Positions 21,638 through 29,502 of a DNA stretch of 64,000 bases are shown in pieces (positions within the stretch are counted from its first letter, which is position 1; every line of letters starts with the position of its first letter). The notes beneath the pieces were generated by a model. That model did not search any database. It had not been told where the DNA came from and saw only the letters and a list, made by a program, of their open reading frames with translations. Position numbers and translations under genes: made by a program. Source of the stretch: Mollicutes bacterium LVI A0039 (GTDB lineage: Bacteria > Bacillota_I > Bacilli_A > UBA3375); contig CP136953.1 in assembly GCA_033103385.1 (NCBI GenBank), forward strand, positions 911,839 to 975,838, given 5' to 3'.

Positions 21638-24451
21638 CTATTCAATTTCTTGATTTTTTTCCTCAACATCATCATTTGTTTTTTCTATTTCTTGGTTATT
21701 TCTTTCAACTGCATTTGAGTGATTAACAATATTGTACATAATTGTATGAGTTCGATCGCGTAGTCCATTTGACATTGCGACTGGCATCTCTTGGTAAGCC
21801 TCTGTTAGCATCGTTTCATTTGATGACCCTTTAAATATCGATAACATTAGTTCATTACCAACAAGCACAGCTTTAACCGGGTCCATCCAGCTACCTAATT
21901 GAGCATCAGTCGACACAATACCATCAAATCCCCACTCTTCACGTAACAATTTATTTAACAATTCATCATTTGCTCCTGCCCACACTGGTCCAATATTAAT
22001 GAAACTAGACATTGCTCCTGTTGGGTCAGATTCTTTAACCGATATTTCAAATGGTCGTAAGTACAATTCGCGCATCGCTTGCTCATTTGCCCAGATAATT
22101 AATCCACTACGAGCATTAACTTCTTGTTCATTTAGGGCAAAGTGCTTAATTGTCACCATAACGTCATGTTCTTGTGCTCCATTGATCATGCCCGCTGCCA
22201 TCTCTCCAGAAATAACCGGATCTTCACTGAAGTATTCAAAGTTACGACCACCAATTGGTGAACGGTGAATATTCATAGCTGGTGCATACCACATATCAAT
22301 TCCATACACCTTACCTTCTAAACCAATTGCATCTCCAAAATCGTATGCAAGTTGTGAATTCCAAGTAGACGCTAACAATAATTCTGTTGGATACGAAGCT
22401 GCATTAGGACTTGCACCAAACATTTTATTCCAACCTGCTGGTCCATCTAACAGCTCGGTACGTGGCACACCAAGTCGTTCGATCTCTCGAGTATGATATC
22501 CCCCGTAACTAATTAATCCAATCATTTCTTCGATCGTAAATTGATCTAGGAATTGATCCCATTTCGGATCGTCAAAAGCAAGTCCTTCAAGATCGGCTAA
22601 AACTAATCCATTGTCTTGTCCAGTCACTGCTTCTATTCCAGCAATTTCCGTTGGTTGGGCATTGAAAGCGTCAACAACATCTTGTGGCGCAGTAAGTTCC
22701 ACATCATCCCCGCTTGGGAATGTACCGGCAAAATCCGCTCTCGATAAGTATGTCAAATCACCGTTAGCGTAATCAAATAAATTATGATAAGACGCTCCTG
22801 TCACCTCATCAGTTGGATAGATTACTTTCTGCTTATTTGTCCACGTGAAACTATCAAAACTATCATGTGCATTTTGGCCAACTACAATTTCATAGTCACC
22901 CTCATCAAGTACATATGCTTGGGCATCTTTCATGTCCCACGAAGACATATCTTTTATTGGAAAACTGATGTTAACCGTTTGACTTTGTCCTGGTTCTAGA
23001 ACATCTGTCTTTGCAAACTGTGCAAGTTCTGTAGCTGACTTTTCAATTCCCCCGTCAATGTATGGTGGGTTAAAGTATACTTGCACCACTTCTTTACCTG
23101 CTACTTTTCCTGTATTAGTAACTTGAATTGATAAATTGACATTTCCCCCTTCAATTTTACTTGAAGTTATTTTTTGATCAAAGCTACTATAACTAAGTCC
23201 ATAACCAAATGGATATTGTACAGCTGATTTGTACCCTGATTCATCACCATCATACAATGTTTCATAATATCGATACCCAACATAGATTCCTTCTTCATAA
23301 TCTAATCGAGAAATTCCTTCTAAATTTTGATAATCATAATCACCGATATTTTGTACTGCGGGAATACTTGAAATATCATATACATATGTATCGTTTAAGC
23401 GCCCTGAAGGATTAACTTCACCAGTAAGTGTTTTTCCGATTGAAGTTGCACCATATGCACCTGGATTACCAATCCATAATACTGATTTGATGCTGTCGTA
23501 CTCGTCTACAAAACTTAGGTCCATTGCATATCCTGAGTTTACTAAAATAATTACATTTTCAAACTCATTGGATACCATTTCAACAAGCTCACGTTCACCA
23601 TCCGATATTTGTAGTGACTCAACCGTCGCATCACTCGCCTCACTACTCATGGCCGTAACCACGATTAATGCAGTATCTGAATATTCTTTTGCTTGGGTTA
23701 AAACATCTTCAGTTAGATAATCGATACTTTCGGGTTCTGACACTTCTTCTTTACCTAATATACCATCTAACATTTGAATCCAAATACTTGAACTAGAAGC
23801 AGTTACCAAATCACTATTATCTTCATAAAACTGATTAAGTTCTGGGTTGACTGCGATACCAGCATCTACTAAACCATCATGAAGCGAAACTGCCTGGTCT
23901 AAGTTTGAGGCCCCAGATCCACCTCCACCCATTTTGTAATTCATTGCTCCAAAACCAAATACGTTTAATTTCTTCTCACCCGTTAACGGTAGGACATCAT
24001 CTTGATTTTTCAGTAACACTAAACCTTCATCGGTAATTTGCTCGGCAACTATCTTTGATGCAGCTCTAGCAGCATCTGCTTCTGGAGTGTTGTCCGTGTA
24101 TGTACTGTTTGCAATCTCTCCCACTTCACTTAAAATTGGCGATATTTTACTAAATACCATTAAGCAAAGTAAGGCCAGGGCTCCCCACGAAATATATCTT
24201 CTCATTTTAGTCTTTTGCTTTTTATATTTTTTATCAAAGTACTTCGCGGCTTTTCGGTCATCGATTTTCATGTCTTTTAATTCTTGTTTGCGCGCAACCT
24301 TGGCCGACTTTCGAGCTTGTTTTGTTTCAGCTTTAGCAAGGGCAGCATCCGATTGATTCATTGTCTTTATTTCTGCTTTTCTCTTTTGATCAGCAAGTTT
24401 ATCGTTTTGATATTGCACTTTTGCTTGTTCCTTGATTAACTTTTTATTCAT
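21638..24451 (-). CDS. Glycoside hydrolase family 3 beta-glucosidase/xylosidase-like enzyme, circularly permuted domain order, N-terminal signal anchor
   Basis: Lys-rich cytoplasmic N-tail then TM ('YISWGALALLCLMVFSKISPILS'). Then the GH3 C-terminal-type domain ('VFGFGAMNYKMGGGGSGASNL', 'GEVNPSGRL'), then an Fn3-like domain ('YEEGIYVGYRYY...PFGYGLSY'). Then the GH3 catalytic barrel ('KHFALNEQE', 'GFDGIVSTDAQLG') at the C-terminus. Confidence 0.8.
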   Translation of the reverse strand: MNKKLIKEQAKVQYQNDKLADQKRKAEIKTMNQSDAALAKAETKQARKSAKVARKQELKDMKIDDRKAAKYFDKKYKKQKTKMRRYISWGALALLCLMVFSKISPILSEVGEIANSTYTDNTPEADAARAASKIVAEQITDEGLVLLKNQDDVLPLTGEKKLNVFGFGAMNYKMGGGGSGASNLDQAVSLHDGLVDAGIAVNPELNQFYEDNSDLVTASSSSIWIQMLDGILGKEEVSEPESIDYLTEDVLTQAKEYSDTALIVVTAMSSEASDATVESLQISDGERELVEMVSNEFENVIILVNSGYAMDLSFVDEYDSIKSVLWIGNPGAYGATSIGKTLTGEVNPSGRLNDTYVYDISSIPAVQNIGDYDYQNLEGISRLDYEEGIYVGYRYYETLYDGDESGYKSAVQYPFGYGLSYSSFDQKITSSKIEGGNVNLSIQVTNTGKVAGKEVVQVYFNPPYIDGGIEKSATELAQFAKTDVLEPGQSQTVNISFPIKDMSSWDMKDAQAYVLDEGDYEIVVGQNAHDSFDSFTWTNKQKVIYPTDEVTGASYHNLFDYANGDLTYLSRADFAGTFPSGDDVELTAPQDVVDAFNAQPTEIAGIEAVTGQDNGLVLADLEGLAFDDPKWDQFLDQFTIEEMIGLISYGGYHTREIERLGVPRTELLDGPAGWNKMFGASPNAASYPTELLLASTWNSQLAYDFGDAIGLEGKVYGIDMWYAPAMNIHRSPIGGRNFEYFSEDPVISGEMAAGMINGAQEHDVMVTIKHFALNEQEVNARSGLIIWANEQAMRELYLRPFEISVKESDPTGAMSSFINIGPVWAGANDELLNKLLREEWGFDGIVSTDAQLGSWMDPVKAVLVGNELMLSIFKGSSNETMLTEAYQEMPVAMSNGLRDRTHTIMYNIVNHSNAVERNNQEIEKTNDDVEEKNQEIE

Positions 24452-24469: not shown

Positions 24470-26860
24470 TTATAGTTTTTCTAACAATTTTTTGACAGTG
24501 GTTTCCTTAATCTTTCCACCCGTGAAACGTGAAACTTGACGCCAAGGCATGTATACTAAGAAGTAAACATAGTTGGCAATTATTGGTTGTTCAAGTTTTA
24601 ATAACAATTTATTGGTAAAAATCAGCATTTTATAGATTGCTTTTCCAAGCACTCCTTGGTATTCGCTCTGAGCTATTACATCACCAAGTTGTAGTGATTG
24701 ACTTCGATCCCAAGTGTTTGGCGGAAGCGGGTGTCCGTATAACAACTCAAATTGGTCACGTTCTATTTCACCACGAGACAAATCGTAATAATCGCTCAAT
24801 TTATGACGATCATACAAATCACTAGTTTCTACAAAGCGGTCAACTATAATTTGACCAGCCGTTGCATCACTAGTTACCAATTCTACTTCCCCGCATAGGT
24901 GAACCGCTTTAATGTTACTAGCAATTTTGATTGTGTATTTACCAATCTCTTGTTCCCAATCATCTGTTTGCGTGTTAAAGTAACTGAAGGTATGTTCATC
25001 GAAACCGATACTAACCGTTTTTGTTTCACCAGGCTCCAATGCAACTTTAGCAAAACCTTTTAATTCTACGCTACTTCGAAAGATTTTTGATTGGTTAGCG
25101 GATACGTACATTTGAGCAATTTCCCTACCAAATACATCACCGGTATTGGTCAAATCAAAAGTTACACCTGTTGATGTTATATGTAAATTGCTATACTTAA
25201 ACGTTGTGTATGAAAGTCCAAAACCAAATGGATAACGCACGGCTTTTTTCGCAGTTTCAAAATAGCGATATCCAACATAAATACTTTCACGATGTTCAGC
25301 GCTAGTTTCATTTCCTGGATAGTACTTACTTGATAAAACATCTTCCCACTTTAGAGGATATGTTTCAGCTAGTTTACCACTTGGATTCACCTTACCACTA
25401 ACAATATTATAGATAGCTTTATTTACTCCTTGTCCTCCCAAATAACTATGTAAAATTGCTAAGCTATATTGTTCAAAATCTAGTTCAATCGGTGCGCCCC
25501 CCGATAGAATGATAATAATATTAGGATTCACTTCATGGAGCTGCTTTAGAACATCAACTTGATTTTTCATTACCCGCATATGGTGACGGTCTAATCCTTC
25601 TGTTTCACTACTCTCATCAAGACCCATATAAAATAAGACATACTCACTTTGAGATGCTAGTTTTTTTGCCTTACGTAGTAAGCGGTTACTCTTTTGACCG
25701 TACCTCTTAAAGCCACGTTCGCAGCCAACCACTGCATATTGACCTTGCTTAAAGATGTTTACAGCACTATCAATTTTTGTAGGTTCAATCAGCGAACTTC
25801 CGGCTCCTTGATAACGCGGTTTAAATGCAAAGTCTCCGACCAGTCCAATTTTTGTATGCATTTTAAGTGGTAAAACTTCATTTTTAAGCATTACAATCGA
25901 TTGTTCAGCTACTTCAATCGCTTTGGCATGATGAATATCTATATCGTAATCACGATGACATGCTTCAATGTTATTGTCGATTCCTTGACGAGTAGTATAT
26001 ACAATATCTAAAATATCTGCCACCGCATTATCAATTAAGCCAATGTTGATTGCACCGCAATTATATGCCTCTAATAACTCAACGTCGGTGATTCCACCAC
26101 TGCTAGGCATCTCTAGTTGATTCCCAACTTTTAAGGCCTCTACTCGATCATTGTTCCCACCCCAGTCAGTAACAATTAATCCATCGAATCCAAAACGTTT
26201 CTTTAAAGTGTCTTTTATCAGATACTCACTCTCATTGGCATAGTGACCATTTACTTTATTATATGATGTCATAATTGCCTTAGGTTGCTGTTTAAGGGCA
26301 ATTCTAAAACCTTCTAAATAAATTTCATGGAGAGCGCGAATATCCGTGACCTCATCAATTGTCATCCTCAGCTTTTCTTGAGAATTAACGGCAAAGTGTT
26401 TAGGGCAACTACTAATTCCCATATCCTCAATACCACGAATTAATCCCGCAGCCATATGACCTGATAAGAATGGGTCTTCACTAAAGTACTCAAAATTTCT
26501 TCCACAAAGTGGATTACGCTTAATATTTAATCCAGGTCCTAATAAAACTGAAACTTGTTCTTTTATAGCTTCTCGACCAAGGTAATTCCCCATTTCAATC
26601 GCTAAGTTTTGATCCCAACTATTAGCCAAAGCGGCAGCTGTCGGAAAGCATGTAGCCGGAATACTAGCATTAAGACCCAAGTGGTCTGACTTTCCACCTT
26701 GTTTACGCAAACCATGGGGACCATCTGTTAGCATCATACTCGGAATGTCTAAATGTTCAATTGTTTCAGTATTCCAAAAGTTTGCTCCTGAGAGCATTCT
26801 AATCTTTTCTTCAATTGACATCTTTTCGATTATATTATTATATTTTTGATAATTATCCAT
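24470..26860 (-). CDS. Glycoside hydrolase family 3 beta-glucosidase (canonical domain order, cytoplasmic)
   Basis: 'GRNFEYFSEDPFLSG', 'KHFAVNSQE', 'GFDGLIVTDWGG', then the GH3 C-domain and Fn3-like 'YVGYRYF...PFGFGLSYTTF'. No signal peptide. Confidence 0.88.
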   Translation of the reverse strand: MDNYQKYNNIIEKMSIEEKIRMLSGANFWNTETIEHLDIPSMMLTDGPHGLRKQGGKSDHLGLNASIPATCFPTAAALANSWDQNLAIEMGNYLGREAIKEQVSVLLGPGLNIKRNPLCGRNFEYFSEDPFLSGHMAAGLIRGIEDMGISSCPKHFAVNSQEKLRMTIDEVTDIRALHEIYLEGFRIALKQQPKAIMTSYNKVNGHYANESEYLIKDTLKKRFGFDGLIVTDWGGNNDRVEALKVGNQLEMPSSGGITDVELLEAYNCGAINIGLIDNAVADILDIVYTTRQGIDNNIEACHRDYDIDIHHAKAIEVAEQSIVMLKNEVLPLKMHTKIGLVGDFAFKPRYQGAGSSLIEPTKIDSAVNIFKQGQYAVVGCERGFKRYGQKSNRLLRKAKKLASQSEYVLFYMGLDESSETEGLDRHHMRVMKNQVDVLKQLHEVNPNIIIILSGGAPIELDFEQYSLAILHSYLGGQGVNKAIYNIVSGKVNPSGKLAETYPLKWEDVLSSKYYPGNETSAEHRESIYVGYRYFETAKKAVRYPFGFGLSYTTFKYSNLHITSTGVTFDLTNTGDVFGREIAQMYVSANQSKIFRSSVELKGFAKVALEPGETKTVSIGFDEHTFSYFNTQTDDWEQEIGKYTIKIASNIKAVHLCGEVELVTSDATAGQIIVDRFVETSDLYDRHKLSDYYDLSRGEIERDQFELLYGHPLPPNTWDRSQSLQLGDVIAQSEYQGVLGKAIYKMLIFTNKLLLKLEQPIIANYVYFLVYMPWRQVSRFTGGKIKETTVKKLLEKL

Positions 26861-27121
26861 ATTACTCCTAACTGTTCATCAAATATATGATATAGTTTAT
26901 TTTGAAAGAAATATACACAATATATAAATACACACATACATTTTCTTAGTTTTTGTAAACACTTAGATTTTGATGGTGCACCAAATTGTTATCATCACTT
27001 AAACATACAACTGTTTGATGCCCGATTATTTTACGATTGATATACAACTTTTAGATGTCACATAATCTTTTGTATTAACTTTCAAAGAAATTGTAATGTG
27101 TTGTTTTTAAAAGGAGACTTT

Positions 27122-29486
27122 ATGGATTATAAAATATTTGATCGACAACTTTTTAACATTAAGTATGACCGTTTAACACAAAACAAATCGTCTTTCAGTA
27201 AAACCTATCAGCTATTGTGGATCGTTAATGGGAGTGGAAATCTCCATATCGGTGCAAATGTAATTCCACTGTGCGGCGATCAGCTATTCTTCATTCCAAT
27301 CGGAACTACATATACCGTTGCCGAGCAAACGGAAATTCTAACTATCAAAATATACTTACCTCAAAAGCACATAAAGCTAAACGAACAATACCGCTCAACT
27401 ATGTTAGATGTTGATAGCCAACCGATTAAAGAACTAGTTGCGACATACTTGTACAAGTATAATAAGCGCGCTGACTTTGACATCGAGATCGAAAGCCAAG
27501 AACTGATTAAAGAATTACTATCACTTGCGAAGATGAGTGACATTACATTAAATCCCGTACGTGACCAACGTATCTTGCAAACTTTGGAATACATTGATAA
27601 GCACACCGAGGTTCGCTTCTCGGTAAATGATATTACAAAAATTACTGCACATTAATCCAACCTATCTATCGACATTGTTCAAAGCTGAGGTCGGTACTAC
27701 AATTGTTAAATATACAAACACCTTACGTCTCGAAGCGGCGATTAGTGATATTCAACATACAAATTTATCGATAACCACCATTGCTCATAACCATGGCTTT
27801 GCCGATGTGCGTACTTTAAACGAACTTACCAAATCCCGATATCAAGTAACGCCAATGCAAATTCGCCAAAAGGTCACAAGTCATAAGGTGAATACTACGC
27901 AAAATAATTTTAATAATATTATTGATAAGTATCGTCTTGATTTAAACTTCAATACAATTACTGAACAAAATGTGGAAATCGCTGGTAACCATCAAACCAA
28001 CACCTACAAGAACTCTTTTAATACAATCGCAATCGGTCGAGCTCACGACATCTTATATGCTCAAGTCCAAGAACAATTAATCGCTTCCAAACAGGAGTTA
28101 AACTTTACTTATTGTCGTTTTCATAACATCTTTGGTGATGAAATGAATATTGTTGACATTGACTTTTTCGAAAGATTCAAATTCAACTTTCAAAAACCGT
28201 TCGCCGTTATAGAGTTTTTATTAGCAAACAATATTATCCCATTCATTGAAATCGGCTTTTTTCCTAAAGAGATTGCCCAAGGATTCCCCTCAGTATTTTC
28301 CGGATACAATATTAATGTTGGAGGTACCATTGACTTTCAGCTTTGGGAACAATTAATTCACGAGTTCTTCACTAGCTTAAAAGCGCTTTTCCCCGATGAT
28401 TGCTTCGATATGCGTTTCGACTTTTGGAACGAGATTGACATCCAGGGTTTTTGGCCAAATTCTAAAGACGACTTATTCAAATTATATGAAATCTCTTATC
28501 AAACAATCAAGAAGATTGATGCGCGGTTTCTCGTAGGAGGATTTAACTATGGTAACTTCATCAGCGACACACAAGCAATAGAACAGGATTTGGATTATTT
28601 ACAGCAGCACGGACTGCTTCCCGATTTCCTGACAATTCACTCTTATCCCTTTTATATCGATGGCGAAATATCACATAACCCCGATTTCGCCGCAACCCAA
28701 ATTAAGATTAAATACATCAAAGGTAAATTGAACGATGATATAAGCAAATTAGTTGCACTACAAAAAAAGTATAACTTTGCCGAAACATATATAACCGAAT
28801 GGAACACCTCTCCATTACAACGAGAACATTTAAATGACGGTCTTTATAAAAGCTCCAAAATAATTAGCGAAGTCATCAACTCTCATTCACTGCATGTCGA
28901 TGGGATTTGCTATTGGACGCTTTCAGATGAAATGGCAGAATTTGGTTATCCCGTCGGTGAAGTTCATGGTGGTTTCGGTTTAATTACCCGCAACGGAATC
29001 CCCAAACCCGCATTTTATAGTTTTGTTGCAGCGTCGACACTTCAGGGAAACATCTTGTTTAAAAACAATAACTGCATAATTGTTCAAAACGAAGACAGCA
29101 TCTATATGTTATTAAACAATGATGTTGACTATGATCGAAATTATTATACTCAAAACTTCGGAACAGCACCACAAACTATGGAAGGTAATGATCTTAAAGT
29201 GAATATTTCCTTAACAAATTTAACAAATAGTATCTATCAAGAAGTTATTTATCAAATTGATGAACATTGTGATTTATATGCCAATTTTAAGCATTTATAC
29301 AATGATAAACATTACTTGCAAAATAAAGAGGTTGAACATTTAAAACAATTATCAAAACCGCATATACATTCACGAATATTAGCACTTGATGAACATTATA
29401 CAACTGTAATTAACCTAAAACCAACACACACGACAATGATTGTCTTAAAAAAGATAAAACAAAGAACGAAAAGGAAGCCAATATAG
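27122..29486 (+). pseudogene. AraC-family regulator (cupin + HTH) fused to a C-terminal GH39-like clan GH-A glycosidase domain; split by a frameshift in an A5 tract at about 27630-27650
   Basis: Track ORF 27098..27655 (cupin-like ligand domain) ends 'VNDITKITAH*'. ORF 27627..29486 in the +1 frame begins '...LLHINPTYLSTLFKAEVGTT' (AraC HTH helix). Removing one A from 'acaaaaatt' gives a continuous 'SVNDITKLLHINPTYLSTLFK'. The C-terminal domain has 'FWNEIDIQGFWP' (acid/base NE) and 'YITEWNTS' (nucleophile TE), typical of GH39/clan GH-A. Confidence 0.6.
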
Positions 29487-29502
29487 TTGGCTTCCTTTTC
29501 CA

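Follow-up and report, generated by a model that had tools for sequence, protein, structure and literature searches.

Classical AraC/XylS-family regulators such as AraC, RhaS and XylR are proteins of ~290-390 aa with a C-terminal double helix-turn-helix (HTH) and a cupin-type (AraC, RhaS) or other sugar-binding domain, and they are often encoded divergently from the catabolic genes under their control. Beta-xylosidases of glycoside hydrolase family 39 (GH39, clan GH-A), including XynB from Geobacillus stearothermophilus (PDB 1w91/2bs9) and the Thermoanaerobacterium enzyme (1px8), are stand-alone enzymes of ~500 aa. Here we describe a gene that joins these two folds, located in a 64,000-nucleotide stretch of DNA (the window, contig CP136953.1, positions 911,839 to 975,838) from Mollicutes bacterium LVI A0039, a cultured shrimp-intestine isolate that is the type strain of Enteroplasma penaei (PMC11527720). 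The gene would encode a regulator that shares the double HTH of AraC, RhaS and XylR but carries ~530 more residues, a linker and a glycosidase fold, after it; this appended domain matches the full barrel and beta-sandwich of the GH39 beta-xylosidases at 22-24% identity. In LVI A0039 the gene is split by a frameshift. Trigger enzymes and enzyme-regulator fusions such as PutA also place a metabolic-enzyme fold and a DNA-binding domain in one polypeptide, and by analogy the shared plan could couple substrate availability to transcription.

Among named proteins, the Staphylococcus aureus regulators AryK (NF047455) and Rsp (NF033869) have the same layout, with a ~150-aa N-terminal domain, an HTH at ~150-250 and a C-terminal domain of ~450-500 aa. 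In the S. aureus papers, AryK/Rsp-type regulators are called atypical because their HTH lies towards the N-terminal end and signals are thought to be received by a divergent C-terminal region, and AryK is naturally inactivated in one S. aureus clone by a premature stop. The AryK NCBIfam model matches residues 9-330 of the protein described here, AryK profile positions 516-756 are matched by its GH39 part taken separately (E 7.5e-9), and on profile comparison AryK is the best named relative. Identity as AryK or Rsp was rejected, as scores far below the equivalog cut-offs (110.9 bits vs 850 for AryK, 34.4 vs 400 for Rsp) indicate remote homology only. AryK and Rsp control virulence and central metabolism, unlike the sugar-locus regulator proposed here, and no adjacent glycosidase operon is described in the S. 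aureus papers on them.

The same three domains in the same order are also found in AraC-GH39 fusion proteins of Firmicutes (Paenibacillus, Clostridium, Eubacteriales), which are 760-860 aa long and give end-to-end profile matches at E <= 1e-114, but these are just ~19-25% identical to the protein described here and many lack a catalytic Glu that it has. From the evidence below, we consider it likely that a conserved regulator composed of a cupin-like domain, a double HTH and a GH39-like domain was inactivated recently and strain-specifically at the LVI A0039 locus, and that the intact form controls a divergent pair of glycoside hydrolase family 3 (GH3) genes.

A regulator gene split within its DNA-binding domain

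A 5' open reading frame (ORF) on the + strand runs from GTG 27098 or ATG 27122 to TAA 27653-27655 and ends in ...SVNDITKITAH*, while a second ORF of 619 aa (27627..29486) lies in the +1 frame and begins MILQKLLHINPTYLSTLFK.... A run of five A residues (A5, 27637-27641) is embedded in AC[A AAA A]TT. With one A taken out of this run, both ORFs fuse into a 787-aa protein that aligns to 19 intact homologues with no gap across the junction, bearing out the proposal in the preliminary description of this DNA that a single gene of ~790 aa is broken at the A5 tract. The GTG start given there was corrected to ATG 27122, which follows an AGGAG at 27112-27116 and is the same start called in the related genome CP136989.1.

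Comparison with CP136989.1 (GCA_033111965.1, 2,030,641 bp), a conspecific genome with 99.87% DNA identity to the window over 17 kb, defined the lesion. CP136989.1 holds an intact 787-aa protein (P0021) that belongs to the same protein cluster as the 619-aa ORF and is identical to the repaired protein at 786 of 787 positions. The sister allele reads GAT ATT GCA AAA TTA CTG and the window reads GAT ATT ACA AAA ATT ACT G, and when GATATTGCAAAATTACTG and GATATTACAAAAATTACTG are compared, positions 27635 and 27637 are the sole DNA differences in the whole gene. The lesion is thus a G->A change at 27635 together with an extra A, not the pure one-base insertion originally described, and because it also includes the substitution, the true ancestral peptide is SVNDIAKLLHINPTYL instead of the ...ITKLL... 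obtained by deleting one A. At residue 172, the position altered by the substitution, family members have Ala (141/161) or Ser (16/161) and none has Thr (0/161). The simplest reading is that both changes arose as one small complex mutation in the LVI A0039 lineage. CP136989.1 is probably the chromosome of strain LVI A0006; published genome sizes are 2,059,165 bp with no plasmid for LVI A0039 and 2,079,178 bp including two plasmids for LVI A0006.

The consequences for the protein follow from where the frame is lost. The 5' fragment covers the cupin-like N-terminal domain and two long helices and reaches ~25 residues into the AraC DNA-binding domain, and its last four codons (ITAH) are out of frame. 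The continuation from 27642 encodes the rest of the first HTH (HTH1), the second HTH (HTH2), the linker and the GH39-like domain. The frameshift at 27637-27641 therefore cuts the first HTH, and the AraC DNA-binding domain is not contiguously encoded in LVI A0039. The G->A change and the A added to an A4 run, two bases apart, put translation out of frame within helix 2 of HTH1. All that the cell can still make is a cupin-like fragment of 177 aa and, at best, a 619-aa piece that is poorly initiated and lacks an intact DNA-binding domain. In the mechanism that we propose, the intact protein of the sister strain would bind the divergent intergenic region and control the GH3 pair, and probably its own gene too, with the GH39-like module acting as a cytoplasmic recognition input for a sugar or glycoside. 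Under this interpretation, the annotated proteins WOO88142.1 and WOO88143.1 (the latter 100% identical to the 619-aa ORF) should be re-annotated as halves of one pseudogene in the type strain, with a working gene in the sister strain. Coordinates of the locus are collected in Table 1.

Table 1. Features of the split regulator gene and its surroundings (positions in the window)
Feature	Position	Strand	Description
GH3 #1	21638..24451	-	937 aa; Lys-rich N-terminal segment, membrane anchor (transmembrane segment); second gene of the pair
GH3 #2	24470..26860	-	796 aa; BglB-type exo-glycosidase; Pfam GH3 N, GH3 C and Fn3-like
Divergent intergenic region	26861..27121		261 bp between GH3 #2 and the regulator; SNP (single-nucleotide polymorphism) at 27074; AGGAG at 27112-27116
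5' fragment	27122..27655	+	177 codons + TAA; NCBI hypothetical protein WOO88142.1
AraC/XylS DNA-binding domain	27566..27884	+	Residues ~149-254; cut in helix 2 of the first HTH
3' ORF	27627..29486	+	619 aa, annotated as WOO88143.1; true coding continuation starts at 27642
Lesion	27635..27641	+	G->A at 27635 (Ala172 GCA -> Thr ACA) and A4->A5 at 27637-27641; +1 shift
GH39-like domain	27993..29372	+	Residues 291-750; (beta/alpha)8 barrel and beta-sandwich; PF01229
Terminator-like hairpin, bidirectional	29468..29500	both	Stem of 15 pairs, then a T-run; the convergent Smr gene shares it

Alternative explanations for the split gene

The preliminary description had allowed for a pseudogene, a sequencing error or a slippage-prone switch, and the first of these three is the one that the evidence selects. 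A phase-variable contingency switch, in which reversible slippage in the A-tract toggles the regulator ON and OFF within the population, is improbable. The intact (A4) and the broken (A5) allele do occur in one species, and the one further indel of the shared 17 kb, where a gene for a giant surface protein begins, is likewise a gain or loss of one A in an A-run, showing that homopolymer slippage does occur in Enteroplasma penaei. As hallmarks of a contingency locus or programmed frameshift, we looked for conservation of the tract across orthologues, or for a homopolymer of about 7 or more. The tract here is far below the length of known contingency tracts, being A4 in the sister strain and A5 in the window, and it is absent from 4/5 other orthologues. 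At the lesion codons these five orthologues read GCT GAC TCA, GCC CAG TTA, GCC CAA AAA, GCA AGT AGT and GCC AAA CTA, and every one is in frame with Ala at the first codon. Longer runs of the same gene (A7, A6, T6) are identical between the strains, and the indel is joined with a non-conservative change of a conserved Ala, which better fits a one-off complex mutation than a switch.

Slightly less probable again is that the split gene works as two polypeptides, a free cupin fragment and a 619-aa HTH-GH39 protein. NCBI annotates both halves as proteins and not as a pseudogene, and the 3' ORF, which starts with an ATG of its own (27627), still contains the recognition helix of HTH1 together with HTH2 and the complete GH39 domain. 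Against this, no intact family member shows such a split, and the small number of short proteins in the top 150 are either P0001 or of unknown completeness. The ATG at 27627 has no good Shine-Dalgarno sequence before it, only a GAGG 15 nt upstream as read from the sequence, and the 619-aa piece would lack helices 1-2 of the seven-helix AraC DNA-binding domain as well as the cupin and helical part. It is through the cupin and helical part that AraC relatives dimerise.

A sequencing or assembly error, in which the real LVI A0039 sequence at 27635-27643 would be GCAAAATTA (an intact gene) rather than ACAAAAATTA, is very unlikely. The difference does include a base gained within a homopolymer, and the PacBio Sequel reads behind the chromosome assembly are indel-prone, but the assembly was corrected with Illumina NovaSeq reads (PMC11527720) and A5 is a short run. 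The identical broken allele is also present in two Logan assemblies, SRR12349260 and SRR12349259, at 100% identity over 11.3 kb and 4.8 kb. We set this option aside because these three assemblies are concordant and because the G->A at 27635, a substitution just two bases from the indel, cannot be a homopolymer artefact.

Least probable of all is a programmed +1 ribosomal frameshift or transcriptional slippage at A_AAA_A that yields full-length protein: tRNA-Lys on AAA 27638-27640 could re-pair on 27639-27641 and give exactly ...ITKLLHINPTY..., but, as for an evolved switch, there is no conserved slippery site (all orthologues and the sister strain are in frame) and no stimulatory context, the next 0-frame codon is ATT and hence no stop at the site, an upstream Shine-Dalgarno-like stimulator is not evident in the sequence, and A5 is too short for efficient transcriptional slippage.

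Domains and predicted structure of the intact protein

The repaired protein matches Pfam HTH_18 (2.8e-15, residues 171-249) and HTH_AraC (2.6e-13), with scores of 56.8-59 bits against a cut-off of 33.6 and 50-57 bits against 26.6, respectively, which place it in the AraC/XylS family. PDB matches of the DNA-binding domain are AraC, MarA, SoxS and XylR. The N-terminal domain of this protein has no Pfam match at E <= 1, and its assignment as an AraC-type ligand-binding domain has support at the family level, with PF02311 (AraC_binding) found in 9/20 relatives (best 3.2e-7) and Cupin_2 in 4/20.

The C-terminal ~500 aa had been described as GH39-like from the motifs FWNEID and YITEWNTS, with a profile hidden Markov model search suggested as a check. 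That search placed PF01229 (Glyco_hydro_39) far above its cut-off (1.6e-39, 136.5 bits vs 26) over profile positions 10-461 of 472, and all 20 relatives match it too. The best PDB sequence matches are GH39 beta-xylosidases (1w91, 3e-38). In the alignment to Geobacillus XynB1, with its residue numbers counted from the printed alignment, FWNE and ITEWN align to E160 (acid/base) and E278 (nucleophile) and IHSY aligns to H228/Y230, corresponding to E437, E559 and H506/Y508 of this protein. The codons of Glu437 and Glu559 are at 28431-28433 and 28797-28799.

An AlphaFold2 model built on 20 family sequences (mean predicted local distance difference test score 83, predicted template modelling score 0.70) begins with eight beta-strands (residues 12-79) and long helices (100-135), continues with a helical DNA-binding domain (149-254) and ends in a (beta/alpha)8 barrel (~301-640) followed by a beta-sandwich (642-777). 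Foldseek comparison of the model to the PDB returned complete GH39 xylosidases on top (E 1e-37), with template modelling scores of 0.84-0.87 normalised to the target.

A large family of AraC-GH39 fusions

Alignment of orthologues, which the preliminary description had suggested, showed that relatives encode the fusion as a single gene: in 19 relatives of 764-824 aa and 20-57% identity, the HTH and GH39 domains lie in one ORF. An exhaustive profile search of 1.84 billion cluster representatives (50%-identity clusters) then gave 1,778 representatives at E <= 1e-30. The best 150 all have E <= 1e-114, and almost every one is 760-860 aa long with a match to profile positions of about 10 to 778. The clusters that were sampled belong to Paenibacillus, Clostridium and Eubacteriales, and carry labels such as 'helix-turn-helix domain-containing protein', 'GH39 family glycosyl hydrolase' and 'beta-xylosidase/AraC-like DNA-binding protein'. 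The fusion had been called unusual, a description that does not hold for an architecture shared by all of the best 150 representatives and mentioned in passing in one paper.

A literature search on AraC with GH39, fusion, sensor and trigger enzyme found no functional study of the fusion, and in the Ruminiclostridium, Roseburia and Butyrivibrio papers GH39 and AraC appear solely as separate genes. AraC regulators with a whole GH39 fold are thus common in Firmicutes and without a functional study in the literature searched. A contig scan with the family alignment, keyed on GH39-domain peptides, returned little besides stand-alone GH39 enzymes (Bacteroidota, Verrucomicrobiota); only one locus (L005, Acetivibrio) spans HTH and GH39, and the scan is uninformative on the taxonomic spread of the fusion.

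The GH39 module as enzyme or sugar sensor

The two catalytic glutamates, an acid/base in the NE motif after strand 4 and a nucleophile after strand 7, are indispensable in real GH39 enzymes. We read the active-site columns from an alignment of 161 full-length fusion proteins and judged motif contexts by eye. Both catalytic Glu are kept in 95/161 (59%) and one or both are lost in 66/161 (41%), with the acid/base replaced in 61/161 (by A, Q, G, N, S, I, L, K and others) and the nucleophile in 22/161. The contexts W-x-F-x-x-W-N-x-P-D and [ST]-x-W-N are intact, showing that the alignment is sound at both catalytic sites. Residues corresponding to XynB sugar contacts are kept at W598 (94%), E606 (92%), Y508 (85%, or 99% with Phe) and H334 (84%). 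Because Glu is often lost while sugar-contact residues are kept, the role of the module appears to be sugar recognition and not turnover, and across the family it is probably a sugar sensor in which catalysis is dispensable. The frequent loss of Glu suggests that an enzyme fold has been reused for sensing, and this could illuminate the unexplained C-terminal domains of S. aureus AryK-type regulators.

The protein described here retains both glutamates (E437, E559), the catalytic residues of GH39, and since both are kept its GH39 domain may still hydrolyse its ligand in this lineage. The domain called a glycosidase in the preliminary description is better read as a glycosidase-derived sugar-recognition domain, possibly still active. 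The Enteroplasma-like subfamily keeps both glutamates with the exception of P0010, which has E->K at the nucleophile. Its close relative P0009 has ITEWN where P0010 has ISKWN in an otherwise conserved motif, apparently a recent loss of catalysis within a glutamate-keeping subfamily.

The divergent GH3 pair and the regulatory link

GH3 #2, the first gene of the divergent pair, is closest to PDB 7ms2, beta-glucosidase B (8e-180). GH3 #1 has a permuted domain order, in which BglX profile positions 374-755 match residues 119-529 (C-terminal-type domain) and the N-terminal part of the profile matches residues 638-870 (N-terminal catalytic domain). Neither protein reaches an NCBIfam equivalog cut-off.

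The order of two GH3 genes divergent from the regulator recurs at loci where the regulator is 56, 52, 47 and 45% identical, so the GH3 pair, which had been noted as a possible target, is conserved beside the regulator gene down to 45% identity. Outer neighbours differ among these loci (ammonium transporter, phosphotransferase system, oxidoreductase, tRNA genes). Because the divergent pairing is conserved while the outer flanks differ, a regulatory link is supported, and we infer from this synteny that the intact regulator controls the GH3 pair. Within the intergenic region, a block at 26904-26950 containing the direct repeat ATACACA at 26913 and 26928, 15 bp apart, is a candidate operator. The SNP at 27074 (G in CP136989.1, A in the window) changes TTGTGT to TTGTAT 48 nt upstream of the regulator ATG.

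Loss of the regulator in LVI A0039 should alter expression of the GH3 pair and may contribute to the failure to use salicin and cellobiose. In API 20A tests LVI A0039 was negative for salicin, cellobiose and xylose, while LVI A0006 used all tested substrates (PMC11527720). Several observations weigh against the inactivated-regulator interpretation or the evidence for it. LVI A0039 was also negative for mannose, raffinose, sorbitol, maltose, arabinose, glycerol and melezitose, and both strains hydrolyse the beta-glucoside esculin (PMC11527720); because many unrelated sugars are negative and esculin is positive in both, the phenotype is not specific to the lesion. At 41% regulator identity (L040) no GH3 is present among the called neighbours. 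When five orthologous intergenic regions were aligned, the candidate operator block was just weakly conserved, being partly kept in two (L003, L036), and a scan gave promoter-like matches at a rate not above that in shuffles, on which basis we propose no promoter. The probable identity of CP136989.1 with LVI A0006 is drawn from genome size and the 99.87% identity, and SRR12349259 and SRR12349260 may not be independent of the genome project.

A more ambitious interpretation, which we regard as doubtful, would make GH39 the sensing input of a large AraC class, a trigger enzyme in some lineages and a pseudoenzyme in ~40% of members, with the LVI A0039/A0006 pair revealing activation of the GH3 genes and the lesion explaining the salicin- and cellobiose-negative phenotype. 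With its published differences in sugar use, this strain pair offers a cheap genetic entry to what such regulators sense and control.

Other differences between the strains

Between 17121 and 33478 the strains differ at seven sites, three of which (27074, 27635, 27637) are within the regulator gene or just upstream of it. Selection aimed at the regulator gene was considered and rejected, as this proportion is not significant once the adjacent pair is counted as one event. Downstream of the gene, the hairpin at 29468..29500 is weak evidence for a terminator taken alone, with two terminator-like sites found vs 1.4 expected from shuffles.

A segment of ~22 kb (34171-56258) is absent from CP136989.1, and beyond this insert identity falls from 99.87% to 95.7%. 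The insert is a glycan-utilisation island encoding GH28, GH88 and GH38 enzymes, a GH2 beta-galactosidase, a xylose-isomerase-like TIM barrel, a ROK-domain protein and an ATP-binding cassette sugar transporter (solute-binding protein, permease). No tRNA gene was found within the 64-kb window. LVI A0039 has this extra carbohydrate island yet uses far fewer API 20A sugars than LVI A0006 (PMC11527720). The frameshifted regulator cannot explain the breadth of these negatives, for which regulatory lesions elsewhere or weak growth during the test may be responsible.

Apart from the lesion, the 17 kb shared by the strains contain a single indel, at 18053-18066 on the - strand, in a poly-A run right after the start codon of a gene for a ~4096-aa surface protein (Bact_surface_Ig-like). 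The window allele, ATG followed by A7, is in frame and encodes a signal-peptide-like start, MKKIVNVLMLTVLLAGQ..., while the CP136989.1 allele, ATG followed by A6, gives MKKLLMY* and the gene is called from a GTG abutting the Shine-Dalgarno sequence. From its sequence, this A6/A7 tract looks like a homopolymer ON/OFF phase-variation switch of the giant surface protein.

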